A stretch of DNA of 64,000 nucleotides from Candidatus Daviesbacteria bacterium. GTDB taxonomy: Bacteria; Patescibacteriota; Microgenomatia; Daviesbacterales; UBA10151. Where the stretch lies: contig JAUYKM010000009.1 of the NCBI GenBank assembly GCA_030699125.1, positions 291,365-355,364 of the forward strand, given 5' to 3'. The position numbers and the translations under genes were made by a program. How positions within the stretch are numbered: position 1 is the stretch's first letter; every line of letters starts with the position of its first letter. This document shows positions 1,290 to 44,611 of the stretch, piece after piece. The notes beneath the pieces were generated by a model. That model made no database searches and was not told the DNA's origin. It worked only from the letters and a program-made list of their open reading frames with translations.

Positions 1290-1360
1290 GCGGGATTAGT
1301 ATAGTGGTAATACGCTACCTTCCCAAGGTAGAGCCGCCGGTCCGATTCCGGTATCCCGCT
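1290..1360 (+). tRNA. tRNA-Gly (anticodon CCC)
   Basis: Cloverleaf read directly from sequence: acceptor GCGGGAT/ATCCCGC, D-arm GTAT-AGTGGTAA-TAC, anticodon stem CTACC/GGTAG with loop TTCCCAA, T-arm with TCCGATT loop. CCA is not encoded. Confidence 0.8.
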
Positions 1361-2855
1361 CTGAATGGGATTTCGCAGGGTTGAAAATTTTCTGACTCTG
1401 CGCGGGTGGGGGCGCGCAGAGTGCTGCAAAGCCCTGATTGTAGCTGACTTCAAGGTGCCGATTAGTCAAAAAGTAGTTCGAGCCGACAGTTTTTGACAAG
1501 AATGCTAATTCTTGGCTTGTATTTTTTGCGCGCGCGATTTTTGCGCACGAAAGTGCGCTACCAATGAAGTTTTTGAACGGTTCGAGCCGACTCGAACCTT
1601 CTGTTTGAATTTTGGTAATTTCCTCATTTTTTCTTAACTTTTCTTCAAAAAGTTCGTTCTTTTTATTCTTGTAAGTTTGAGCATCAACAACACCATCTAA
1701 GTAACTATCAAGTAATATATTTAATTTTTGATCCAGCAGTTGTATTTCTTCTACTAACCTCTTTAGGTTTTGATCTTTATTTTGTTTTTCTAAAAGCTCA
1801 TCCCTTTCCAGCCATTTATACCAATCATCCGCCCACTTTTCAGGCAGAGCTGCATCTGAGACAATCTTTGTTATTTGCGACTCTAATTCAACTTCTGTGA
1901 TCGGTTTTTGAGAGCAAGAGCCAAGTTTTTTAGTACAACTGTAGTAAGTATATTCAACTTTCACTCCCAAGGATTTAACTAATTTAAATTTCTTTTCTCC
2001 AGTCACACTTGCACCGCATTCTCCACACCTTACCAGCCCTAAATACGAGAGATTATGCTTATTATATTTAGGCCTAGATATTATCTTGAACTGTTTTTGT
2101 ACTCGATCAAACAGCTGCTTAGAAATGAACAACTTATGTGTTCCATCATAATATTCTCCTCCATAATAGATAATTCCAATGTAGAATTTATTACTTAAAG
2201 CATTTTTAAGCCTGTCTATTTTTAAAGGATTTCCAAATTTATCGCTAAATCCATTTTTATGAAGAAACAAACAGATATCAGTAAATGTTTTATCACCATC
2301 TGCAAAATACTCAAAAGCTTTTCTTAAAATCCTGGATTTTTCAGGATCAATCTCTATAGTTCCCAATTTTTCATTATTTATATATCCCCAAGGAGCTTTG
2401 GCGGGCAAGACACCATTCCTTAGCTTTTGTCTTAAACCTCTTTTAACATTCTCACTTAAGTTGTCTATGTAATATTTAGACTGACCAAAGGAAATATTTA
2501 ACATAAACTTTCCTTGAGGGGTATTTTCAAACCAAGAGGTAGGAAATTTTAAATCTAACAACTGACCAGTATCTAAAAGATAAATTATTTTTCCTCCATC
2601 AATTGAATTTCTAGCTAATCTATCCGGGTGCCAAGAGATAATACCTTGTGCTTGCCCTTTTTCAACTAACTGTAAAAGTCTTTCAAACTGTTTTCTACCC
2701 GGAGTTTTGGCAGTCTTTGCTTCTTCAATAAATTCAACTATCTCCAAGCCCTCACGTTGGGCAAATTCGGTTAGTTCATCAACTTGTGCCTCTATGGAGA
2801 GAATTTGTTTATCAGCCTCATCTGTTGATTTTCTGCAGTATGCTATATATTTCAT
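1296..2855 (-). CDS. large serine recombinase (resolvase catalytic domain + recombinase domain + zinc ribbon + coiled coil)
   Basis: N-terminus MKYIAYCRKSTDEADKQILSIEAQ carries the resolvase-type catalytic Ser motif. A CGECG..C..C zinc-ribbon and a long C-terminal coiled coil are present. The last ~65 codons of the ORF run through IR-A and antisense to tRNA-Gly, so the true stop is uncertain. Confidence 0.8.
   Translation of the reverse strand: MKYIAYCRKSTDEADKQILSIEAQVDELTEFAQREGLEIVEFIEEAKTAKTPGRKQFERLLQLVEKGQAQGIISWHPDRLARNSIDGGKIIYLLDTGQLLDLKFPTSWFENTPQGKFMLNISFGQSKYYIDNLSENVKRGLRQKLRNGVLPAKAPWGYINNEKLGTIEIDPEKSRILRKAFEYFADGDKTFTDICLFLHKNGFSDKFGNPLKIDRLKNALSNKFYIGIIYYGGEYYDGTHKLFISKQLFDRVQKQFKIISRPKYNKHNLSYLGLVRCGECGASVTGEKKFKLVKSLGVKVEYTYYSCTKKLGSCSQKPITEVELESQITKIVSDAALPEKWADDWYKWLERDELLEKQNKDQNLKRLVEEIQLLDQKLNILLDSYLDGVVDAQTYKNKKNELFEEKLRKNEEITKIQTEGSSRLEPFKNFIGSALSCAKIARAKNTSQELAFLSKTVGSNYFLTNRHLEVSYNQGFAALCAPPPAQSQKIFNPAKSHSERDTGIGPAALPWEGSVLPLY
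1358..1460. repeat. Inverted repeat A, left arm (103 bp; perfect inverted copy of 2960-3062)
   Basis: The reverse complement of 1358-1460 equals 2960-3062 with no mismatch. The arm abuts and overlaps the last 3 nt of tRNA-Gly and contains a 9-bp internal hairpin, CTCTGCGCG..CGCGCAGAG. Confidence 0.9.
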
Positions 2856-2959: not shown

Positions 2960-3062
2960 CGGCACCTTGAAGTCAGCTACAATCAGGGCTTTGCAGCACT
3001 CTGCGCGCCCCCACCCGCGCAGAGTCAGAAAATTTTCAACCCTGCGAAATCCCATTCAGAGC
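2960..3062. repeat. Inverted repeat A, right arm (A')
   Basis: Perfect reverse-complement copy of 1358-1460. It is directly contiguous with IR-B, overlapping it by 5 nt. Confidence 0.9.
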
Positions 3063-3163
3063 TCGTTTACGAAAGCGCTCGAACTCAATTCCAATCGACG
3101 CATTAGTTGTCGGCGCCCAGCTCACGTTCGGTCCCAACCTTTTTATTTAATCCCTACCTTTTC
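3058..3163. repeat. Inverted repeat B, left arm (106 bp)
   Basis: The reverse complement of 10899-11004 matches 3058-3163 with 3 mismatches. Confidence 0.85.
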
Positions 3164-3256
3164 CGAAGCTCTGAAACTGGAGGCTCGAACATCCCGCACC
3201 AACTGGTGCGTGATACAAAAAACGCAAAAATTTTAAAGAACTTTTCGCACCCTAAA

Positions 3257-4705
3257 TTATGTACTTATCCAAAATGTATTTATTACACTATCTCCGATAA
3301 ACTCAGCAAGCTGTCCTGTAGGTTTTTGTTCCCCGATACACTTACCAACTCTTACTGTCCAATTAGGACCAGTAGGATCTAATATTTCAGACAATGGATC
3401 AATGACTTCTTTTATATCCTCATTTTTCCTGTCCCAAGTGTCACAGGTGGAAAGCCTATCACTTTTTTTACCATGTCTTTTACTGGAAGCAGCTTCTTTA
3501 ATTTTTGTTTTTGCAGTCTCCCAATCTAAACTTAATTTTTTCAGTACCTCATCTGTTATAAAAAGATTTTCTGACTCTCTACAAGATAGTTTTAAATACT
3601 TTATGTGTTTTTGAGGATTTTGAGATGTATTCTGTGGATGAGTAGCATCGCCATCTATTAAAGCGTATCCAGCGGCGTTCGTAGATGTGCTCCTCATACT
3701 CTCAAAAAGTTTTTCAAGAGTTTTTTGGTATTCATGTATTTCCTGACCATCACAGGGAATAGCTGCTAATTTAACTTTGTGATGTCTAGGGACTTGGCTC
3801 CATATTTTATAGTCATCGTCTCCTTCAACTAACATTAAAGGTGCTCCAAAAAGGGGACCCATTAACGCATGCCCACCTAAACAGGTAGCTAATTCTTGGA
3901 GGGCACTTTCAAACTTAATAGCTTTTTGTTCTTGGACAGAATTATTTAAGTATATTGCGCTCGTATTTTCTCCACCATGGTGTCCTAGAGCAGCTAAAAG
4001 GGTAGTGCTATGAGTAGCAATAATTATTTGTGCGTTATACTTTTCCATTAGCTCAACTAAAAATCCTGCTAAATGTTGTTGAAGATCTGGGTGGAGATGG
4101 GTATCCGGTTCATCAATAAGAAGTAATCTTGTGCTTTGATTCTCAAGTTGCCAAATAGAACATATAGTTAGTAAATCTAAACCTAATGCTAACATTTCAG
4201 TTTCTCCACTACTAAGCTGATCCTTGCTTGAAATTACTTCATCTGTTGATACTCTTTTTAATTCAAAAAAGGGATTTTCTGGTTTTAATTTGAAACTAAA
4301 ATCTGGAAAGAGCTTAATCATTAACTCCGCAATGTCTTTAACTGGTGAATCTACCTTACCTTCCTCAAAATAATAACCCCTTTTGGTAAGATAGGTGTTA
4401 ATTCTTGAGATAACCCTTTCTCTAAACTGAAGTGATAAATTACTTTGTCTATTGGAAGCTCTTGTGGAGGCTGCGACTTCTTGGAGAGCAAAATCAGAGT
4501 TAAATTGTAGTTCACCCGCTCTTTCTGGAGATGTTAAATGACGAGCGTTATGGTCAGCATTGAGTAAAGCTCTTAATAATGCACTTTTGCCTGAACCATT
4601 TCTACCGAAGAGGACAGTTATATCAGTTAGATTTTTCAGAATCCACTTATCCCCACCTAAATGGGGTGGTCTTTGTGCTTCTAATTGGTCAAAATATAAA
4701 GACAT
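3257..4705 (-). CDS. OLD-family ATP-dependent nuclease (ABC-type ATPase N-domain + C-terminal Toprim)
   Basis: Walker A GRNGSGKS, ABC signature LSSGETEML, Walker B LLLIDEPDTHLHP, H-loop IIATHS. C-terminal Toprim motif 1 LMLVEGDDD and motif 2 ALIDGDATH. Only 482 aa, compact relative to P2 Old or GajA. Confidence 0.7.
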   Translation of the reverse strand: MSLYFDQLEAQRPPHLGGDKWILKNLTDITVLFGRNGSGKSALLRALLNADHNARHLTSPERAGELQFNSDFALQEVAASTRASNRQSNLSLQFRERVISRINTYLTKRGYYFEEGKVDSPVKDIAELMIKLFPDFSFKLKPENPFFELKRVSTDEVISSKDQLSSGETEMLALGLDLLTICSIWQLENQSTRLLLIDEPDTHLHPDLQQHLAGFLVELMEKYNAQIIIATHSTTLLAALGHHGGENTSAIYLNNSVQEQKAIKFESALQELATCLGGHALMGPLFGAPLMLVEGDDDYKIWSQVPRHHKVKLAAIPCDGQEIHEYQKTLEKLFESMRSTSTNAAGYALIDGDATHPQNTSQNPQKHIKYLKLSCRESENLFITDEVLKKLSLDWETAKTKIKEAASSKRHGKKSDRLSTCDTWDRKNEDIKEVIDPLSEILDPTGPNWTVRVGKCIGEQKPTGQLAEFIGDSVINTFWIST

Positions 4706-5964: not shown

Positions 5965-8397
5965 CTAAATTGCGCTTTGCCCAGTAGGAGCTTCATGTTT
6001 AATTTCAGGAACTAATTCTTCTAATTTATTTACTGCTTCAACAATGCCTGGTAATTGAGCTTCCATTTGTGCTACTCGTGCTTTTTCAGCATCCGACATA
6101 GATGCTTCTTTTTGGACAATACTACCTTTCCCTTCAATCTCTGGTGCTTCAGGTTGTGATACTGGTACACGACCAAATTCCTGTTTTAGTTGCTCCCTTT
6201 GTTGAATAATAAGTCTTTCTTGATCTGATAGTTCAGTGGGATTTTTTCTCATTGCTGCTTGATAAAGCTGTTCTTGTTCAGAAGTCCATGCTTTTACTTC
6301 AATAGCTCTGATAATATCTACTTCAACTACTCCTTTGCTTCCATTTTCAGTTGGTAGCGTAATAACCTCACCAATTGGTGCTGTACCTTCTCGAAATCCT
6401 CCTAGTGGAAGTGGCTGACCTGGCTCTATTTGACTTCTAGCCCTGCGAAATGCTTCTTGAAAAGATTGAAAGTATGAGTCGTCTAATTCTACTTCTACAA
6501 ATAACCCTTCTTCGCTCTCGTTTTTAACATTACGTGCGAGTAGAACATTCTCTTGAGTTACAGAATCATAATCTAATCCAAATGTAGTAACAAACTCACC
6601 TTGAGATGTAAAAATTTTCTTAAAAAGTCTATTTTCTAATCCATATGCTGCAATACCGCGTAATAAATATAAAAGTTTTTGATCATCTTCTTTAGGTTTA
6701 ATTAGAGCATGAAAAAGAAGATCTCTTGGAACTTCTCCTCTTAGTCTTAATCTGATTGTGTTAGGATTGCCTTCTCTCTGTTCAACTGCAATAACTTGAG
6801 AAGATAACCGATCACTTATAAGACGAATGAATCCTGCTGGATCTTTGACATCAGGAAAATCTTCATGAGCAACTTCCATTCCATATTCTTGAGCAAACTG
6901 TTCTTTTCTATATTGAGGAATTGTAGGTGCTTCGTTACTAGCTGCTTCAACTGTACTGAGCTTACTACTCGCCTTGGGCATTCCTATAGATTCCATATAG
7001 GAAGGGCAAACAACATAGCCTTGTTTTTCTAATTCTTTGACTTGATTATCACTTACACCACGATCCCAAGCTATGTAATTCTTTCCCTCAAAAAGTTGTT
7101 GATACCCTCTTTTGTCATATCCCTTATAGGGTAATTGCTTTGCTAATTTTTCAATTACTACAAACGCTCCTTGCCTGTCGAAGCTATATCCAGAATCAAC
7201 ATGTCCTGCCCACAAGAATTCAGAACGTCTAATTTGTTCAACAAGATCATCTTTTGACATTGCTCCTACCATTTCATCAAGATAGCGGCCAAGATCAAAA
7301 GGACTTACAGGTGGTCTATCTATACTCATTCTATATTTCAGATTATTTAGTTGAATTGTTACTTGCTCTGGTCCCACCCAATAATCTTCAGCAGTATCAC
7401 CCTTATCTTTAAAATTCATAACTTGGCCATTAATAAATAAGCGACCTTTAGTGGGTTCTAAACCTTCAGATTTTGGAAGCCATTTTATTGCCCCAAACCT
7501 ATTTTGGTAATCCATATTTTGTAAATAAGGATTTTCAGCAGATACTCCTAAAGTTGGAACTTGTTGAAGTGCTCTTATCACTTCTGCATTATCAGTTTCT
7601 ATGATATAGGTATTGCGACCGGTTCGTTGTGCTTCTTGCATATCAGCAAGCAACCAATCATGTTTTACTATATGAGCAGGGTTTTGACCATGCAAACTCT
7701 CCCATTCTCTATTAACATCAGCCGCTTTTGCTAATCTATAATCTACTGTCCATCCTTCCCCCTGGATCTGGAACTTCTGTACTCCAAAGTCTCGCATAAA
7801 ACGAATAGCAGTCTGTTTAAGCCCAATTCCGTTTCCCCCTGCAGTATTCATGTTCGCTGGTTTTTCAGAATGAGGACTTAAAACTCCTGTGGGATCTTCG
7901 AAAGGCCAGTTTCCTTCTATACGAAAACGTTTACCGCCACCTGGTAGATCTTCAGCTATAAATCTTACTCCGTTCAAAGTACCTGGTGCTTGAGGATTAT
8001 GATCTACAAAATTTTGTACAAGTTCCCTAGTTAGCCATGCAGAATTGTACTCATCTCTTGACTTATCTAAGAAGCTGTCAGTTGCTATTGGCTGCGTATC
8101 AACGCCGCGTTCTCTAAAGAAATATTGTAATAACTTTTGATCAGTTATAACTCCCTCTATCTTTGCTCCATTACCATTTTCTGCAGTTAGAGCAGGAGGA
8201 GATTCAGGTTCGGCCGGTGGCTGTGTTAGTTGAGGTGTTTGCTCGGTTGGTTCACCTGCAACATTAGGATTTGCAGTCGGTTCGCCTCTCTTACCAAAAA
8301 ATCTATCCCTTAATCCTGCAAATCTTGACTTTCCCCCTGCTGGTTCTGGATTTTCCGTAGTCATAGGTTCTGACATATTATATATCCATATTAGCAT
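5965..8397 (-). CDS. large hypothetical protein with N-terminal GHKL (Bergerat-fold) ATPase-like motifs
   Basis: N-box-like RELVQNFVDH (ExxxNxxD), G1-like EDLPGGGKRF and G2-like AGGNGIGLKQ, in the order expected for histidine-kinase/MORC/Hsp90-type ATPases. Pro/Ala-rich N-terminal linker. 810 aa with atypical (GC-rich) composition. Confidence 0.4.
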   Translation of the reverse strand: MLIWIYNMSEPMTTENPEPAGGKSRFAGLRDRFFGKRGEPTANPNVAGEPTEQTPQLTQPPAEPESPPALTAENGNGAKIEGVITDQKLLQYFFRERGVDTQPIATDSFLDKSRDEYNSAWLTRELVQNFVDHNPQAPGTLNGVRFIAEDLPGGGKRFRIEGNWPFEDPTGVLSPHSEKPANMNTAGGNGIGLKQTAIRFMRDFGVQKFQIQGEGWTVDYRLAKAADVNREWESLHGQNPAHIVKHDWLLADMQEAQRTGRNTYIIETDNAEVIRALQQVPTLGVSAENPYLQNMDYQNRFGAIKWLPKSEGLEPTKGRLFINGQVMNFKDKGDTAEDYWVGPEQVTIQLNNLKYRMSIDRPPVSPFDLGRYLDEMVGAMSKDDLVEQIRRSEFLWAGHVDSGYSFDRQGAFVVIEKLAKQLPYKGYDKRGYQQLFEGKNYIAWDRGVSDNQVKELEKQGYVVCPSYMESIGMPKASSKLSTVEAASNEAPTIPQYRKEQFAQEYGMEVAHEDFPDVKDPAGFIRLISDRLSSQVIAVEQREGNPNTIRLRLRGEVPRDLLFHALIKPKEDDQKLLYLLRGIAAYGLENRLFKKIFTSQGEFVTTFGLDYDSVTQENVLLARNVKNESEEGLFVEVELDDSYFQSFQEAFRRARSQIEPGQPLPLGGFREGTAPIGEVITLPTENGSKGVVEVDIIRAIEVKAWTSEQEQLYQAAMRKNPTELSDQERLIIQQREQLKQEFGRVPVSQPEAPEIEGKGSIVQKEASMSDAEKARVAQMEAQLPGIVEAVNKLEELVPEIKHEAPTGQSAI

Positions 8398-9336: not shown

Positions 9337-9621
9337 CTAGTGGGTCTTCTTAGCTATAACTTTTTGTAATCCACCCTTACCGTATTTAATAATCTGTCCA
9401 ATTTTAGAAACAGTTGAGGTAGAAGTCCCAACTTTTCCTGCTATCTCATCATAGGTTTTTTCTTCTAAAATTAACTTTGCTATTTTTAACCTTTGGGCTA
9501 AATCCAAAATTTCTTCTTCAGTCAAAAGATCATCAATAAAATTAGCTAAATCTTTAGATTTTAATTTTCTTAAGGTATCAACTAATAATTTTCTATCTTT
9601 GTCTAAGTTAAGCTTTGTCAT
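9337..9621 (-). CDS. TrpR-like YerC/YecD family DNA-binding protein
   Basis: 94 aa. The segment TYDEIAGKVGTSTSTVSKIGQIIKYG matches the YerC/YecD Trp-repressor-like HTH family. Confidence 0.55.
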   Translation of the reverse strand: MTKLNLDKDRKLLVDTLRKLKSKDLANFIDDLLTEEEILDLAQRLKIAKLILEEKTYDEIAGKVGTSTSTVSKIGQIIKYGKGGLQKVIAKKTH

Positions 9622-9668: not shown

Positions 9669-10295
9669 TTAAGTCCTGTAAACAGTTGCCTTACCTTTTT
9701 TCTCTGATTTCAGTTTACCATTTTTAACTAACTCTGATAAATAACTGCTTGCTGAACTTTGAGAAACTTGTAAAAGGTCTCTTACATCTTGATTGTTAAT
9801 TTCTTTTTTCCTTGCTAACTCAACTATTTGATTTAAGTTTTCTTCTCTCCTCTGTTTTCTTTTTTCATTTGCCTTTTGTAAAAGCTCGGAAACTTTTTGA
9901 TCTAACTTTTTTTCTATTTCTTCCTCAATATTAACTTTTGGAACTTCTGGAGCTTTTTCTTCTTTGGGTTGAGGTTTTTCTTTCTTAATTTCTGGGTCAG
10001 GTTTTTGTTCCTCTTGTGGTTTAGGACTTTCTGTTTCTTTCTCCCTTGGTTTTTCTTCCGGAATTTCAGAAACTGGGGGAGATTCGGGGGTCTGGGGTGA
10101 TTGGGGAGGAGTTGGGGAAGGTTCAGGTTCAACTGTAGGAGTTTCAACAACGGGTGGAGTTTCTACTGTTGGTTCTTCTATTTTAACTTCTTCTTCAACT
10201 TTCGGTTGTGGAACTTCCTCTGGAGTTTTCTCTTCTTCGGGCTTAGGTTCTGGCGATGGGGTTTGATCGGTGGGTTGGTTTACATCATCTGCCAT
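9669..10295 (-). CDS. winged-helix DNA-binding protein with Pro/Glu/Lys-rich low-complexity N-terminal region
   Basis: N-terminal ~140 aa are PEPK-rich repeats. C-terminus NLNQIVELARKKEINNQDVRDLLQVSQSSASSYLSELVKNGKL...KATVYR is wHTH-like. Confidence 0.45.
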   Translation of the reverse strand: MADDVNQPTDQTPSPEPKPEEEKTPEEVPQPKVEEEVKIEEPTVETPPVVETPTVEPEPSPTPPQSPQTPESPPVSEIPEEKPREKETESPKPQEEQKPDPEIKKEKPQPKEEKAPEVPKVNIEEEIEKKLDQKVSELLQKANEKRKQRREENLNQIVELARKKEINNQDVRDLLQVSQSSASSYLSELVKNGKLKSEKKGKATVYRT

Positions 10296-10299
10296 GATT

Positions 10300-10898
10300 T
10301 CAGTCTAGCACAGAATCGGCCAAAATGGTGGAATCTGGCCGATTATCTCCCAGAGGTTGGAAGGAAGCGGTTCCGCCGCCCCCGCTCACTTCAGGATAAT
10401 TTCCCAAAAAGGAGGGCAGCACCTTAAAAGAATCTTTCGGAATTTTTAAAAAACTTTCTTGGGTGCTGCCCGACCATCGCGAGAGCCGAGAAAAATAATT
10501 TCGGAGTTTCAAATTACTCGGCTCGAGCCATCGGGAGTCCTCGCGAGCGAAGCTCTCGAGAGCAAGCGAGCGGTATGGAAACAGAAAAGGGTAAAAATTG
10601 CGGCGGGGGCGAAAAGGAATTACCCCCGCAACGGCAGGAGGAACATATACAGATAAAAGATTACCAGAGACTGTAAAGAATAAATCGAAGACTATGATAT
10701 CGGCGAGTCGCCCCCTAGTGGCGACCTCTCGCCCAAAAGCGGGGGTGCCGCTTCCATTATTTTGGGTGGGTGGGTGATGGGAATTTAGAAAGCCTTTAGG
10801 ACTTTTATTTTTTCTGTCTTTTCTTGTCCCGCTTGCGGGACTATAATATAAAAATCGCGCGCATTTATTGTGATTTGCAAAAAATACAAAGAGCAAGA
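10300..10898. other. GC-rich, hairpin-dense non-coding region (candidate large structured RNA or recombination/regulatory region)
   Basis: Numerous perfect stems: AATCGGCCA..TGGCCGATT, GGCAGCACC..GGTGCTGCC, GAGCCGAG..CTCGGCTC, GCGGGGG..CCCCCGC, GGCGAGTCGCC..GGCGACCTCTCGCC, GTCCCGCTTGCGGGAC. ORFs in this stretch are Arg/Gly/Pro-rich and implausible as proteins. Confidence 0.35.
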
Positions 10899-11004
10899 GA
10901 AAAGGTAGGGATTAAAATAAAAGGTTGGGAACGAACGTGAGCTGGGCGCCGACAACTAATGCGTCGATTGGAATTGAGTTCGAGCGCTTTCGTAAACGAG
11001 CTCT
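10899..11004. repeat. Inverted repeat B, right arm (B')
   Basis: Reverse-complement copy of 3058-3163 with 3 mismatches in 106 bp. Confidence 0.85.
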
Positions 11005-11041
11005 CAGTGAATTTTATGGCTCTAAAGAGATATTTAGTGTA

Positions 11042-11647
11042 CTAACAAGCTAGCTCACCTTCACCGCACGAGGAAGGAAGCTCTCTTATTTGAGGGACGC
11101 CTGGTTCCTTGCCGCTGATGATGTAATCCTCAGCTTTTGTGACTTCCCATTCATGTTCATGATTCCAAAGATTCCAGAAATGACGCCACTCGTTCCAACC
11201 AATCCCCAGATGCTGTACGTATATGCTGCTTTCAACCAAAAGCTGGCCTATTTTTCTGCCGGTCATACATGGCATGCTATAACAGTAGACTATGATATCT
11301 TTATCCTGGGGAAGCTCCCGAAATTGTTTTACAATCCTGTCTTTCTCATCATAAGCAGATGTATTGGGATCCTTATAGGCAGGGATATTGGTAGCTCCAA
11401 TGATATGCTCTTTTTCATATTCCTGAGGACTTCTCAAATCGACTAAGACAAAACCTGTGTCGCCTTTATCCATCATCCGTCTTAAGGAATGGGGGCTGAC
11501 ATGTACTGCATTTTCAACAAGATAAAATTCTTTGATTAAGTCTTCTTTGGTTGGTTTTTGCATTCGCTGGTAGACTAAAACAGTTGCTCCACCCACCAAT
11601 GCTCCGACGAGAGCTGCTATAGCAACAATCTTAATAGTTTGATACAT
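11042..11647 (-). CDS. rhodanese-like domain protein with N-terminal membrane anchor
   Basis: N-terminal TM segment. The stretch VLVDLRSPQEYEKEHIIGATNIP followed by IIVYCYSMPCMTGRKIG is a rhodanese fold with an active-site Cys region. Confidence 0.55.
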   Translation of the reverse strand: MYQTIKIVAIAALVGALVGGATVLVYQRMQKPTKEDLIKEFYLVENAVHVSPHSLRRMMDKGDTGFVLVDLRSPQEYEKEHIIGATNIPAYKDPNTSAYDEKDRIVKQFRELPQDKDIIVYCYSMPCMTGRKIGQLLVESSIYVQHLGIGWNEWRHFWNLWNHEHEWEVTKAEDYIISGKEPGVPQIRELPSSCGEGELAC

Positions 11648-12487: not shown

Positions 12488-13138
12488 ATGAGAGCCTACA
12501 AAATACTTCCGGTAGAGATGAAGGTTAAAGATTTTAACCTGTCTAAAGATGCCTTAAAAAGGCTATATTGGATGGATTGGTATTTTAGTCATGGCAAGAA
12601 TGCAGAAGCTACCTGTAGACACTTTTCTATTTCCAAGAGTGTGTTCTATAGATGGCTACCCAGATTCTCTAAATTCAACCTAGCTACTTTAGAAGAAAGA
12701 AGCAAAAGACCTATTCATTTAAGGGGAATGACCACTAATCCAGCTATTTTAAAAAGGATTTATCAAGTTAGGTTAAATGATATGACTAGTAAATACAAGA
12801 TCAAAGAACAACTTAAGAGAGAGGGTATTAACATTTCTACCAAGGTCATACAAACAGATAATGGTTCAGAGTATCTCCTCTATTTCCATGACCTGACTCA
12901 GAAACTGAATATTCCACATTACTTTTCCTATCCTCACAGCCCAAAGATGAACTCTAGAGTTGAGAGGCTTATTCAAACCATTGAGTATGAATTCTTCCAT
13001 TATCAGGATCCTTTACCTGAAATTGACAATATCCAAAGATTATGTGGGCAGTTTAATCTTAAGTACAACCAACTTAGATTCCATCAAGCTATATCTTACA
13101 AAACACCACAAGAATATGTTACAACTCTATTATCTTAG
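12488..13138 (+). pseudogene. IS481-family (rve/DDE) transposase remnant with internal deletion
   Basis: N-terminal HTH (SISKSVFYRWL) and C-terminal integrase-core tail (TDNGSEY..HSPKMNSRVERLIQT..YNQLRFHQA) are present. The segment carrying the first two catalytic Asp residues is missing in this 216-aa product; a full-length protein would be about 350-400 aa. Confidence 0.55.
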
Positions 13139-13254: not shown

Positions 13255-13326
13255 GCCGACTTAGCTCAGAGGTAGAGCAGCTGTTTCGTAAACAGCAGGT
13301 CACTGGTTCGATTCCAGTAGTCGGCT
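13255..13326 (+). tRNA. tRNA-Thr (anticodon CGT)
   Basis: Acceptor GCCGACT/AGTCGGC, D-arm GCTC-AGAGGTA-GAGC, anticodon stem GCTGT/ACAGC with loop TTCGTAA, T-arm ACTGG-TTCGATT-CCAGT. Confidence 0.8.
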
Positions 13327-13425
13327 CAAAATCCTTAAGCGTTGGAAATTTTCGCGCACTTTTTTTCCATGAATTCTGAATCATTATTTTTGTTATTCAA
13401 TCAATGGGGATTAGGTTTTTTGACC

Positions 13426-14180: not shown

Positions 14181-16393
<2,213 letters not shown>

Positions 16394-16396
16394 GTA

Positions 16397-16972
16397 TTAC
16401 CTGGATTTTTTAAGCTGTTCAATCTCTTTTTTAAGCTCTACCATTTTTAATTCCCTCCCTACCATGATTTTATTAGACTTCTCCAATTCTTTAACCCGGT
16501 CAGCAAGCTCTTTTGTCCGCTGCGTTATTTGAACCTCAAGCCCGCTGGTATACTCGGTCAATTTTTGTTCAAGATTACTCTTTTCCGTAATATCTTCCAT
16601 GGCCAGAATAATCAATTGTACTGTATCTATTTGTCTCGCATTGAGTACTACTGTCTTCTTCCCGATTGATTCAAAAACATGCGTAACTATATAATCTCTC
16701 ACAACTTTTTTCTCCGGCAGGATTTCTTCCAGTAATTTTCGCAGTTCAGGAATATTCCACTGACCATTACCTAAATTATAAAGAAGTGCATTCTCTGTTT
16801 GTTCCGGTGAAACCTGAAAGTCTGAATAGAAAACAGGGTTGGCTGAAATCACCCGAAGATCAGAATCAAGAATTAAGAACGATTCCCGGGCAACATCTAC
16901 CAGTGTTTGCATGTAATGTAAAGCCAGCTTTTTTGACTCATCTAACTCACTCATAATTTCACCTCCTTTCAT
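16397..16972 (-). CDS. PAS-domain protein with C-terminal coiled coil
   Basis: PAS-like core (ILDSDLRVISANPVF...) and a Lys/Glu-rich coiled-coil tail. 191 aa. Confidence 0.5.
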   Translation of the reverse strand: MKGGEIMSELDESKKLALHYMQTLVDVARESFLILDSDLRVISANPVFYSDFQVSPEQTENALLYNLGNGQWNIPELRKLLEEILPEKKVVRDYIVTHVFESIGKKTVVLNARQIDTVQLIILAMEDITEKSNLEQKLTEYTSGLEVQITQRTKELADRVKELEKSNKIMVGRELKMVELKKEIEQLKKSR

Positions 16973-16978
16973 GCCTCT

Positions 16979-17188
16979 TCATTTATTTAATTTCAAGTCC
17001 TTTTTTTCGCAATCACACGGATGTGTATGGGGAAAAGCGATGATGTTATATTCACCGCATCTTAGACACTTTATTTCCAACTCCGAATCCAGTTTTGCTA
17101 CACCCAACAGCTTTTGACAATGCTTGCAGCGATAGTCCAGTTTACCTGTAGAAGTAGACATATTAATTGTTTCTGTTTGTTTTTTCAT
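16979..17188 (-). CDS. small zinc-ribbon protein (CxxC-x17-CxxC)
   Basis: CKHCQKLL ... CLRCGEYN. The start is moved to ATG 17188, because the ORF-track N-terminus MVFRAFFM begins at a GTG inside the upstream terminator hairpin. Confidence 0.45.
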   Translation of the reverse strand: MKKQTETINMSTSTGKLDYRCKHCQKLLGVAKLDSELEIKCLRCGEYNIIAFPHTHPCDCEKKDLKLNK

Positions 17189-17222
17189 AAAAAAAGCCCG
17201 AAATACCACTTGTATTCCGAGC
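17189..17222 (-). terminator. intrinsic terminator (stem GCUCGGAAU / AUUUCGGGC, 9-nt loop, U7)
   Basis: On the minus strand, GCTCGGAAT-ACAAGTGGT-ATTTCGGGC is followed by TTTTTTT. Lies just downstream of gene 17260..17736. Confidence 0.6.
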
Positions 17223-17259
17223 TTCTAGAGCTTCTTTAATATAGACAAAAACGCTTCAA

Positions 17260-17736
17260 TTAAAGCGATTGCTTTTTGATCAATTTTTTTTCAGCTGTCT
17301 TGGTCTCTGTACCAATAAAAAATTTGGGATTACCTTTTTCATCAAGGATAGGAGAAATACGCAAAGTTACCTCATAGAGCTGACCATTTTTCTTTTTATT
17401 GGTAACCGTAACTATTGCGATCTGTTTTTCAACTTTTATCTTGCGCCATAAATCTTTATAAAATGTTTCCGACATCTGGCCTCCCCAAAGTGATGGCCTC
17501 GCTCCAATAATTTCTGTGATACTATAGCCAGTAAGATCTGAGAGCGCTTTATTCCCGTAAAGAATGACACCATTTATATCAGTAATCATAATTTGATCAG
17601 TTTCATCGTCAAAGAAAAAATTGATTTGTTTACAGCGACTACATTTAATTTCAACAGCCGGCGAACCCAACTCCCCAATTGCAAGCAACTTATTACATTT
17701 AACACATCTATATTCAACATGGTTATTATTATTCAT
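17260..17736 (-). CDS. zinc-ribbon (CxxC..CxxC) + PAS domain protein
   Basis: CVKCNKLL ... CSRCKQIN followed by a PAS-like region paralogous to the sensor kinase. The start is set at the second Met (MNNNNHVEYRC) because the first nine codons of ORF 17260..17763 are the terminator hairpin of the upstream pilin gene. Confidence 0.45.
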   Translation of the reverse strand: MNNNNHVEYRCVKCNKLLAIGELGSPAVEIKCSRCKQINFFFDDETDQIMITDINGVILYGNKALSDLTGYSITEIIGARPSLWGGQMSETFYKDLWRKIKVEKQIAIVTVTNKKKNGQLYEVTLRISPILDEKGNPKFFIGTETKTAEKKLIKKQSL

Positions 17737-17737
17737 C

Positions 17738-17770
17738 AAAAAAGCCCGAAATACCACTTGCATTCCGAGC
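17738..17770 (-). terminator. intrinsic terminator downstream of pilin gene (near-identical copy of 17189-17222)
   Basis: GCTCGGAAT-GCAAGTGGT-ATTTCGGGC followed by TTTTTT on the minus strand. 33 nt after the stop of 17804..18283. Confidence 0.6.
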
Positions 17771-17803
17771 TTCTAGAGCTTCCATAATTCAGAATACCAC
17801 GAA

Positions 17804-41100: not shown

Positions 41101-41172
41101 GGCCCGGTAGCTCAGCGGTAGAGCAGAAGCCTTTTAAGCTTTTGGTCCTGGGTTCGAATCCCAGCCGGGTCA
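41101..41172 (+). tRNA. tRNA-Lys (anticodon TTT)
   Basis: Acceptor GGCCCGG/CCGGGTC, D-arm GCTC-AGCGGTA-GAGC, anticodon loop CTTTTAA, T-arm CTGGG-TTCGAAT-CCCAG. Confidence 0.8.
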
Positions 41173-41216
41173 CAAGTTAACAATTGTTAAAAATAGATGA
41201 AAGAAGTTAACAGTAG
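41170..41216. repeat. 47-bp direct repeat, copy 1 (overlaps last 3 nt of tRNA-Lys)
   Basis: TCACAAGTTAACAATTGTTAAAAATAGATGAAAGAAGTTAACAGTAG matches 44484-44530 at 42 of 47 positions. Contains the palindrome TTAACAATTGTTAA. Confidence 0.7.
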
Positions 41217-41260
41217 ATATGTAATTTGTATTAGCTCCATATTTTTGCAATAATCATAGT

Positions 41261-44483: not shown

Positions 44484-44530
44484 TCACCAGTTAACAATAG
44501 TTAAAAACCGATGAAGGAAGTTAACAGTAG
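44484..44530. repeat. 47-bp direct repeat, copy 2
   Basis: TCACCAGTTAACAATAGTTAAAAACCGATGAAGGAAGTTAACAGTAG matches 41170-41216 at 42 of 47 positions. Confidence 0.7.
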
Positions 44531-44611
44531 TTGATTAAGTGACATCAAATACACATCTTTGACAAACATCTTGTTTAAGTGCTCAGGGTAAACGACTTTG
44601 GTGATTCATCT

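Follow-up and report, generated by a model that had tools for sequence, protein, structure and literature searches.

Bacterial non-coding RNAs of several hundred nucleotides (nt) with multi-helix covariation are uncommon, and earlier classes of similar size have repeatedly proved to be ribozymes, RNA guides or large RNA assemblies. To our knowledge, almost nothing is known about regulatory or catalytic RNA in the Candidate Phyla Radiation (CPR). A 64,000-nt stretch of a Candidatus Daviesbacteria genome (contig JAUYKM010000009.1; hereafter the window) was analysed, in which a GC-rich block at 10300-10898 lies at one end of an integrated island with a large serine recombinase gene. Positions 10363-10755, together with a G-rich tail extending to ~10784, probably encode (at a probability of about 0.6) a structured non-coding RNA on the + strand without a match in Rfam 15. 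The RNA is ~390 nt long in the window and reaches up to ~520 nt in relatives with extra hairpins. It would represent a large covarying bacterial RNA from the CPR that is tied to a defined genetic setting.

Large structured non-coding RNAs on mobile elements are already known in general, and the present family is new to Rfam 15. Similar to ROOL and GOLLD, the RNA is several hundred nt long, has many covarying helices, occurs on mobile DNA near tRNA-linked integration sites and has no constant protein-coding partner. It differs from both in showing no similarity to either covariance model, in its smaller size (~390-520 nt), in its occurrence so far only in Ca. Daviesbacteria, and in its fixed position and orientation beside the attachment (att) repeat of a serine recombinase. 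HEARO/omega RNAs and the IS110 bridge RNA are likewise structured RNAs at the end of a mobile element, adjoining the recombination site; however, the enzyme here is a large serine recombinase, and neither an IscB, TnpB or DEDD gene nor a match to such RNAs in Rfam could be found. Large serine recombinases are not known to use an RNA, and no complementarity between the RNA and the att core was found, although no systematic search for it was made. Divergent tRNA group I introns that are missed by both RF00028 and ARAGORN have been reported in Patescibacteria (PMC13011429). The RNA shares with them the phylum, a similar size, a GC-rich sequence in an AT-rich genome and its absence from standard annotation, and differs from them in not being inserted in a gene and in a closing helix of 8-9 base pairs (bp) without tRNA context.

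Fold and covariation of the conserved block

Homologues were obtained as eight clearly distinct sequences, in addition to near-identical copies of the L007 type, on ~19 contigs from several projects (loci are given L numbers), and those with an organism name belonged to Ca. Daviesbacteria. Identity among the diverged homologues was 62-78%, and nhmmer was also used for the homology block. A MAFFT alignment of the eight distinct homologues, window included, served as the base for the fold and the pair counts. Conservation in this alignment begins abruptly at 10363 and ends near 10784, and the flanks could not be aligned between subgroups. RNAalifold predicted 80 pairs, of which 19 showed compensatory double changes. 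The pair counts were conducted on a curated set of 69 pairs in 10 helices, with 500 shuffles and partners slid by 1-3 columns as controls. Standard pairs were formed in 94.0% of 530 cells, compared to 88.0 +/- 0.7% in the shuffles and 38-49% for the slid partners. Changes on both sides could be observed in 16 of the 69 pairs against 8.8 +/- 1.8 in the shuffles, none of the 500 reaching 16, and the covariation score was 0.174 against 0.076 in the shuffles (again reached by 0/500) and at most 0.064 for the slid partners. Whole hairpins were inserted or deleted at fixed points among the homologues. Judging by these changes, the block evolves like RNA, as a multi-helix structured element conserved at the level of a family.

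The predicted topology is a three-way junction, in which P1 joins the ends of the RNA and one domain each is enclosed by P2 and P3, two long-range helices rich in G/C (all positions on the + strand). P1 (10363-10370/10748-10755; GGAAGCGG/CCGCTTCC) pairs strands ~380 nt apart and closes the conserved core, 10363-10755, which forms the homology block of the eight distinct sequences. It was kept in three sequence variants, including TTGTCGCGG/CCGCGACAA in L007 and L010 and GGCGGC/GCCGCC in L021, with both-side changes in 3/8 pairs. P2 (strands a:b, 10377-10386/10602-10611; CGCCCCCGCT/GGCGGGGGCG) encloses the 5' domain with hairpins A, B and C; it was paired in 97.5% of cells, and its terminal C-G pair is replaced by U-A in L021. 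P3 (strands c:d, 10622-10629/10739-10746; ACCCCCGC/GCGGGGGT) encloses the 3' domain, and as read from the alignment its arms in L024, ACCCCGCC/GGCGGGGT, pair perfectly in a register shifted by one.

Hairpin A (10414-10471; GGGCAGCACC/GGTGCTGCCC) has an AU-rich top and a UUYGGRAUU loop motif, and in L023 the helix is kept with another sequence, GGGCTGCC/GGCAGCCC, as read from the same alignment. Hairpin B (10479-10528) consists of a GC step, a tandem G.A/A.G, the stem GAGCCGA/TCGGCTC and an AU-rich top with a UUYGGRUUU loop motif, so that hairpins A and B bear similar, UUYGGRAUU-like loops. Both-side changes were present in 4 of the 9 pairs of hairpin B and five stem versions occurred among the eight homologues, while its tandem G.A was invariant with G-C pairs on either side. 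In hairpin C (10541-10573), the outer stem TCGC/GCGG was paired in 93.8% of cells and had C-G replaced by U-A in three sequences; the inner stem, GCTC-TCGA-GAGC, is 4 bp long in the window and 8 bp long (GTCCCGTC/GACGGGAC) in L007, L010 and L011. The 3' domain contains the invariant strands GGCAGG and UAGAGACUGUA, hairpin F, and the insertion site (~10660) of hairpin E, an optional, covarying hairpin present in 6/8 homologues. The inner stem of hairpin F (10702-10733; GGCGA-GTCGCC-CCCTAGT-GGCGAC-CTC-TCGCC) was paired in 100% of cells and showed both-side changes in two pairs, with GTCGCC/GGCGAC replaced by GGCTCC/GGAGCC in a variant, and one G.U in L024.

Just outside P1 lies the G-rich 3' tail (10760-10784; TTTGGGTGGGTGGGTGATGGGA), of which the motif GGGNGGGNGGG was located 3' of P1 in all eight homologues; the segment TTTGGGTGGGTGGG occupies 10761-10774. 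Candidate pseudoknots of the tail, with CCCA at 10403-10406 or with the hairpin F loop, rest on a single L023 substitution. A search of all column pairs revealed no interleaved helix with compensatory support save these weak tail candidates, the invariant strands being uninformative in this respect. The four G5/C5 segments that make up P2 and P3 could instead form a local hairpin and a long-range helix. Two compensatory events favour P2 and P3, and an alternative conformer of these segments may exist.

These results could be compared with an earlier, sequence-only reading of the window, which had proposed a GC-rich, stem-dense block at 10300-10898 as a large structured RNA of a mobile element. 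This proposal gained support, as the multi-helix fold was kept through compensatory changes in eight diverged homologues, and as the reading frame across the block behaved as non-coding DNA without a family match, its only relatives in the databases being spurious frames over homologous DNA. The GC content was indeed ~0.49 at 10300-10898 compared to ~0.35 around it; in 400-nt intervals it was 0.48-0.49 over 10001-10800 and ~0.29-0.38 across most of the neighbourhood, in a genome that is AT-rich (~35% GC overall). The block itself is real, but the conserved core is narrower than the boundaries then given, comprising 10363-10755 and the tail to ~10784. All six stems that had been listed were found in their places: AATCGGCCA/TGGCCGATT (10314-10322/10336-10344, +), GGGCAGCACC/GGTGCTGCCC (10414-10423/10462-10471, +), GAGCCGAG/CTCGGCTC, GCGGGGG/CCCCCGC, the nested stem GGCGAG-TCGCC...GGCGA-CCT-CTCGCC (10702-10733) and the hairpin GTCCCG-CTTG-CGGGAC (10826-10841). 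The first and the last of these hairpins fall outside the core, each being kept in a subgroup of homologues. The segments of GCGGGGG/CCCCCGC are likewise present, but their local hairpin is probably non-native, since the compensatory changes favour the two long-range helices. When compared with dinucleotide shuffles, the 605-nt stretch was the more stably folded on both strands, with z values of -2.8 (+ strand) and -5.5 (- strand), based on 20 shuffles only.

Coding potential, known RNA families and strand

The sequence-only reading had seen no credible open reading frame (ORF) in the block. However, the block is spanned in full by an ORF of 198 amino acids (aa; 10300-10896, - strand) that stops 5 nt short of the winged-helix start codon, which called for a direct test of the claim. 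At 49% GC, 198 codons in a row without a stop are unexpected, and a search against 5.8 billion proteins returned one match (P0121, E = 1e-6), both of which would favour a real or decayed gene. The alignment with P0121, however, was a 25-residue identical island amid gaps, and the DNA behind that protein (L007) aligns to the window at the nucleotide level over ~420 nt, with whole hairpins inserted. Across eight homologues, between 7/8 and 15/17 of the indels relative to the window were not multiples of three, mismatches were equally frequent at all three codon positions of the ORF, without a third-position excess, and the longest open frames of the other homologues fell in differing - strand frames. 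The ORF matched neither Pfam nor PHROG families. Because the - strand is pyrimidine-rich, stops are rare and long - strand frames arise. The ORF thus behaves as non-coding DNA and is an artefact of composition, which leaves a protein-coding gene hardly credible; the ORF exists, but it fails as a gene. Public gene callers annotate the homologous DNA as hypothetical proteins of 130-204 aa (P0121-P0127), and a model of the RNA gives annotators an alternative to the 130-200-aa hypothetical proteins now called there.

The same miscalled ORFs could be used to find relatives. A profile of the spurious ORF run against 1.84 billion protein representatives revealed six more miscalled ORFs, whose contigs yielded L021, L022, L023, L024-26 and L039-45. 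A 23-nt motif common to the window and L007, with the pattern ATGGAAACAGAANAGGGTAAAAA, was scanned in genomes and metagenomes and led to at least two Daviesbacteria genomes (L010, L011) and, in the metagenomes, to at least two copies of the same sequence (L017, L018). The other matches listed were due to chance. The ATGGAAACAGAANAGGGTAAAAA stretch proved variable, and the motif scans therefore gave close relatives and chance matches only. Four DNA motifs gave no match or chance matches only in the viral contigs of IMG/VR, where no homologue was found. A blastn comparison of the block against phage and plasmid collections gave no match, and a search of viral contigs for related loci with the winged-helix protein and the recombinase gave nothing. 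An exact-protein look-up of the winged-helix protein of the window found no record, and a concatenated six-frame pseudo-protein query found no match.

The RNA family has no match among the 4227 families of Rfam 15, and it was not mentioned in the literature searched. Rfam 15 was scanned at gathering or permissive thresholds with the window, L007, L011, L017, L018, L021, L022 and L039. At the gathering thresholds, six tRNAs only were found in the window and one tRNA only in L017, L018, L011 and L007. Permissive scans of 10100-11100 and L007 (E <= 10) and of L021, L022 and L039 (E <= 1) gave chance-level miRNA or snoRNA matches or nothing. The families named by the sequence-only reading (ROOL, GOLLD, HEARO/omega, OLE, raiA, and group I and II introns) did not match at either threshold; these scans also gave no match to RNase P, SRP, 6S or the domains of group II introns. 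ARAGORN found no transfer-messenger RNA (tmRNA) or split tRNA in the window, L007, L011, L017, L018, L023, L024 or L040, and there was no Rfam match to tmRNA. As a separate observation by eye, tmRNA, RNase P, group II domain V, a CsrA sponge and group I had been rejected on topology, missing hallmarks or near-chance motif counts.

A highly divergent group I intron, or a group-I-like ribozyme, that escapes RF00028 was weighed further. The segments UAGAGACUGUA and ...GAUAUAGG resemble the R and S elements of the Michel-Westhof consensus of group I, an uncomputed likeness in short motifs that the RNA would share with the Patescibacteria introns. RF00028 gave no match in the five homologues scanned permissively (E <= 10 or E <= 1), although divergent Patescibacteria introns can escape this model (PMC13011429). 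The covarying helices are all nested, no interleaved pair of the P3/P7 type having compensatory support apart from the weak tail candidates, and covariation holds the 3' strand of the candidate P7 in hairpin F. Moreover, the RNA is not inside any gene: its 5' flanks are a divergent winged-helix gene or the ends of unrelated genes, and its flanks are unconserved, differ between loci and contain no tRNA halves according to ARAGORN. A group I origin is accordingly very unlikely.

With regard to the strand, indirect evidence favours the + strand as the functional one. It was purine-rich (G > C, A > T) in 8/8 homologues, and its minimum free energy was the lower of the two strands in 7/8, the window being the exception. 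In most sequences the outer stem of hairpin C includes two U.G pairs, which are C-G in others, and it forms no helix on the - strand. At four loci (L023, L024, L018 and L011), a co-oriented, unrelated gene ends 7-46 nt upstream of the + sense RNA, and transcription in the - sense would meet a convergent gene. For L023, a promoter-like site in the sense of the RNA predicts a transcription start ~10 nt upstream of P1, and a palindrome, CUCCACAAUUGUGGAG, followed by UUUU could be seen by eye on the + strand of L017 and L021, ~45 nt past the tail. Upstream of the core, the inverted repeat AATCGGCCA-N13-TGGCCGATT (10314-10344, +), with the conserved loop AAAATGGTGGAA, is kept only in the window, L022 and L024, one of which has no adjacent winged-helix gene; it may serve as an operator or belong to the RNA as a 5' hairpin. 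The RNA would be made from its own promoter or by read-through from an upstream gene, and would serve, as a folded RNA, the element and not a neighbouring gene.

The opposite strand would instead provide a structured 5' leader or regulatory RNA of ~540 nt for the winged-helix/YerC-TrpR-like operon (9669-10295, 9337-9621). The folding z of -5.5 on the - strand of the window, a promoter-like site at 10874-10845 (- strand), a winged-helix start codon located 5 nt past the open frame, and the recurrence of the order RNA, winged-helix, TrpR in L022 are consistent with such a leader. This arrangement, however, fits only the window and L022, and it is argued against by the flanks in L023, L024, L018 and L011, where a - sense RNA has no co-oriented gene downstream. 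Together with the purine bias, the lower + strand energies in 7/8 homologues and the U.G pairs of hairpin C, which exist on the + strand only, these flanks make a - strand leader quite unlikely.

The host island and its att arms

The island of the window is a large-serine-recombinase integrative element with att repeats at the 3' end of a tRNA. The integration target is the 3' end of tRNA-Gly(ccc) (1290-1361), next to which lies the X arm (1343-1460). The recombinase gene (1296-2855, - strand, 519 aa; Pfam Resolvase, Recombinase and Zn_ribbon_recom) lies between X arms, and an internal, inverted attP-like site (2960-3172, - strand), in which X' (2960-3077) is joined to Y' (3053-3172), is located upstream of it. 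The Y arm of the distal att site, the right inverted repeat of the island, occupies 10890-11009 (+) with the crossover GCTCT at 11000-11004. The RNA thus lies between the winged-helix gene and this repeat, as the sequence-only reading had correctly placed it. The three junctions, tRNA-GCTCT-X, Y-GCTCT-X (inverted) and Y-GCTCT-flank, would correspond to attL, the internal inverted attP-like site and attR. The NCBIfam match of the recombinase was CcrB/XisF-like and below the cut-off.

The L023 island follows the same plan at tRNA-Pro(ggg), with att arms at 9881-9971, 14755-14941 and 16444-16615. Its X arms (103 nt, 100% identical) are 1502 nt apart, compared to 1499 nt in the window, and its Y arms are 91 nt long and 99% identical. 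The recombinases of the two islands are 61% identical, through the X-encoded C-terminal segment. Both islands have the order tRNA, recombinase gene within inverted X arms, cargo within inverted Y arms, and the RNA by the distal Y arm. The RNA is oriented outward, at a distance of 110-250 nt from the distal att repeat on its inner side. The RNA gene is a conserved non-coding end-module of small tRNA-targeting serine-recombinase islands in the window and L023, the two loci at which a whole island is in view. At other loci the island link is suggested by homologous Y arms after the RNA in L024, as in L023, and by att-like sequence after it in L017 and L011.

From the RNA to the Y arm, the window, L022, L023 and L024 share a conserved spacer, in which a hairpin (GTCCCG-CTTG-CGGGAC in the window) and the TATAAT behind it (10826-10847, +) make up a promoter-like module directed outward. 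The hairpin has a compensatory version, GTCCGC-GTCA-GCGGAC, in L023 and L024, and the element in L023 scores 10/12 as an outward promoter on the RNA-sense strand. The order of hairpin with TATAAT, AAAAATCGCGCGCATTT and TTTGCAAAAAATAC could be seen in the window (10826-10880), in L023 (9990-10048, reverse complement) and in L024. It is possible that this module drives outward transcription through the att site. In the subgroup of L007, L010, L011 and L021, 7-9 copies of CCACAA/TTGTGG follow straight after the RNA, which is also followed by Y-arm-like sequence (L007 1-150, reverse complement; L017 11780-11920, reverse complement; L011 1640-1780; L021). Several of these copies form CCACAATTGTGG palindromes, which are iteron- or operator-like and only loosely like a DnaA box.

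No protein gene constantly neighbours the RNA. The cargo of the window island comprises an AriA/PtuA-like ABC ATPase, four proteins without a family match, a YerC/TrpR-like protein and a winged-helix protein. The ATPase (3257-4705, ABC/OLD type) had its best PADLOC matches in AriA/AriAB (PARIS) and PtuA; since these are defence proteins, the island of the window carries defence-like cargo. The 167-aa and 186-aa ORFs adjoining the ATPase gene had no matches. Elsewhere, the cargo includes a restriction-modification system in L023 and a Bro-N protein in L024. The RNA was absent from L001-L006, six loci with homologues of the 810-aa protein of the window island, and is therefore not linked to that protein family; L001 also has no inverted-repeat architecture, and its recombinase is only 28% identical.

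The 810-aa protein itself (5965-8397) is identical to P0001, a protein of a Candidatus Daviesbacteria metagenome-assembled genome, and was matched by no family in Pfam, PHROG, NCBIfam or PADLOC. At E <= 0.001, the database contains 128 relatives; most are ~950-1040 aa long among the 120 listed, and among those listed the named relatives are mostly from CPR bacteria, the window copy being ~180 aa shorter. A GHKL-like motif, ELVQNFVDHN/GGNGIGLK, could be recognized by eye, and relatives occur both inside and outside recombinase islands. With respect to the recombinase, its ORF crosses the X arm and the att junction into tRNA antisense sequence (window 1296-1460; L023 16444-16650), so that the protein would have a different C-terminus in each of the integrated, excised and inverted states. 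The repeat encodes a conserved ...YNQGFAALCA..., and the tails ...GIGPAA and ...GIEPTT lie in the tRNA-antisense stretch. In two Daviesbacteria genomes, the RNA occurs 4-7 kb from the same tRNA-Lys(ttt)/CvpA-CAP/SNase/DUF192 neighbourhood (L011 5588-7811; L040 288-3822), and in this subgroup a conserved hotspot of the chromosome, and not an intact island, may be its location.

Possible function of the RNA and other elements of the window

The RNA is tied to the att-proximal end of tRNA-targeting, defence-carrying islands, and its function is therefore testable; replication priming, control of the recombinase and a trans-acting ribonucleoprotein (RNP) are candidate roles. A cis-acting maintenance or replication-priming RNA of the excised element is put forward as a tentative guess of low probability. 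On the excised circle, the RNA would work in cis beside the att repeat, much like RNA II, as an origin or primer; host enzymes would turn a persistent RNA-DNA hybrid of its conserved, G-rich 3' tail into the primer. This guess is based on the lack of a recognisable initiator in the island, the G-rich end of the RNA, its place beside the recombination repeat and the documented RNA-based origins. Rep, primase and helicase families were not found among the island ORFs by Pfam, PHROGs, NCBIfam or PADLOC. RNA-based origins of 400-500 nt have been described in extrachromosomal mycobacteriophage prophages (PMC7157519), and the likeness to these and to ColE1 RNA II lies in a structured non-coding transcript of 400-550 nt (predicted here) on an element without a recognisable Rep. 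The likeness extends to a G-rich segment that could anchor an RNA-DNA hybrid and to alternative pairings possible among the four near-identical G5/C5 segments. There is, however, no sequence relationship to either, so that the comparison is a hypothesis of similar working only.

The arms of the island allow a second comparison. X arms are inverted around the recombinase gene and Y arms around the cargo, and the excised circle would therefore carry two inverted attP-like sites. In this the element resembles the yeast 2-micron plasmid, as the two inverted recombination sites would split the circle into a recombinase and a cargo segment, with a candidate origin module next to one repeat. It differs in its serine rather than tyrosine recombinase and in its bacterial host, and its inversion and amplification are hypothetical. 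The RNA could be coupled to this unusual double-inverted-att architecture, either as an RNA-primed origin with 2-micron-style, inversion-driven amplification or as a leader or promoter module placed before the recombinase gene by inversion of the cargo. Such coupling is speculative and rather unlikely; if true, bacterial mobile elements would have a new kind of maintenance or switching system that depends on an RNA, here in a CPR lineage.

Several points weigh against the reading as a + strand RNA that primes replication of the element. Only eight sequences were available, and many pairs never vary. The strand and ends of the RNA were inferred; the - strand of the window folds slightly better than its + strand, and outside hairpin C the G.U (7 cells) and A.C (8 cells) appositions are balanced, which gives weak wobble evidence for the strand. 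The islands of the L007/L010/L011/L021 subgroup are out of view, and the RNA there may be chromosomal. With regard to priming, replication of the element as a circle is a guess, one of the 167-, 186-, 303- and 810-aa island proteins without assignable function could be an initiator, and no analogue of the antisense RNA I was identified, no search for one having been made.

The main rival reading takes it for an ornate cargo RNA that acts in trans, comparable to ROOL and GOLLD, as a free-standing RNA or RNP that would aid the element or its host in defence, counter-defence or host manipulation, and whose proximity to the att site would merely reflect where accessory cargo accumulates. This is possible but not probable. 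The large multi-helix fold, the conserved single-stranded motifs and two similar loops that could bind protein, the defence-type cargo of the islands (the AriA/PtuA-like ATPase, the restriction-modification system of L023 and the Bro-N protein of L024) and the absence of a protein gene as a constant neighbour are all consistent with it. On the other hand, no known ornate RNA was matched, and the constant outward position by the Y arm, together with the co-conserved spacer, suggests a role tied to the end of the element. The DNA-level, - strand leader, group I and coding readings are less likely. At the DNA level, the pairing would serve replication, as an origin or single-strand origin, or an extended att site, as its accessory or enhancer region. 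The block does adjoin the att repeat, its helices are almost all Watson-Crick, and some homologues contain GAA-loop mini-hairpins of the GCGAAGC type and CCACAA/TTGTGG repeats in and after the block. Nevertheless, a closing helix in the 380-nt range, a nested three-way junction and optional peripheral hairpins are typical of RNA and not of origin or att DNA, and the strong purine strand bias and the covarying, U.G-rich hairpin C point in the same direction. Function at the DNA level is thus unlikely.

Other elements of the window could also be observed. A 78-nt direct repeat, 76% identical (41170-41247 and 44484-44561, 3314 nt apart), starts from the 3' end of tRNA-Lys(ttt) (41101-41173) and may provide the att repeats of another small integrated element. 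The copies of a 65-nt direct repeat (17181-17245 and 17729-17793; 89% identical, 548 nt apart) overlap the ends of two neighbouring - strand ORFs. Beside tRNA-Thr (13255-13327), a 216-aa ORF (12488-13138) with HTH_28 and only the tail of the rve integrase core looks like a truncated insertion sequence transposase.

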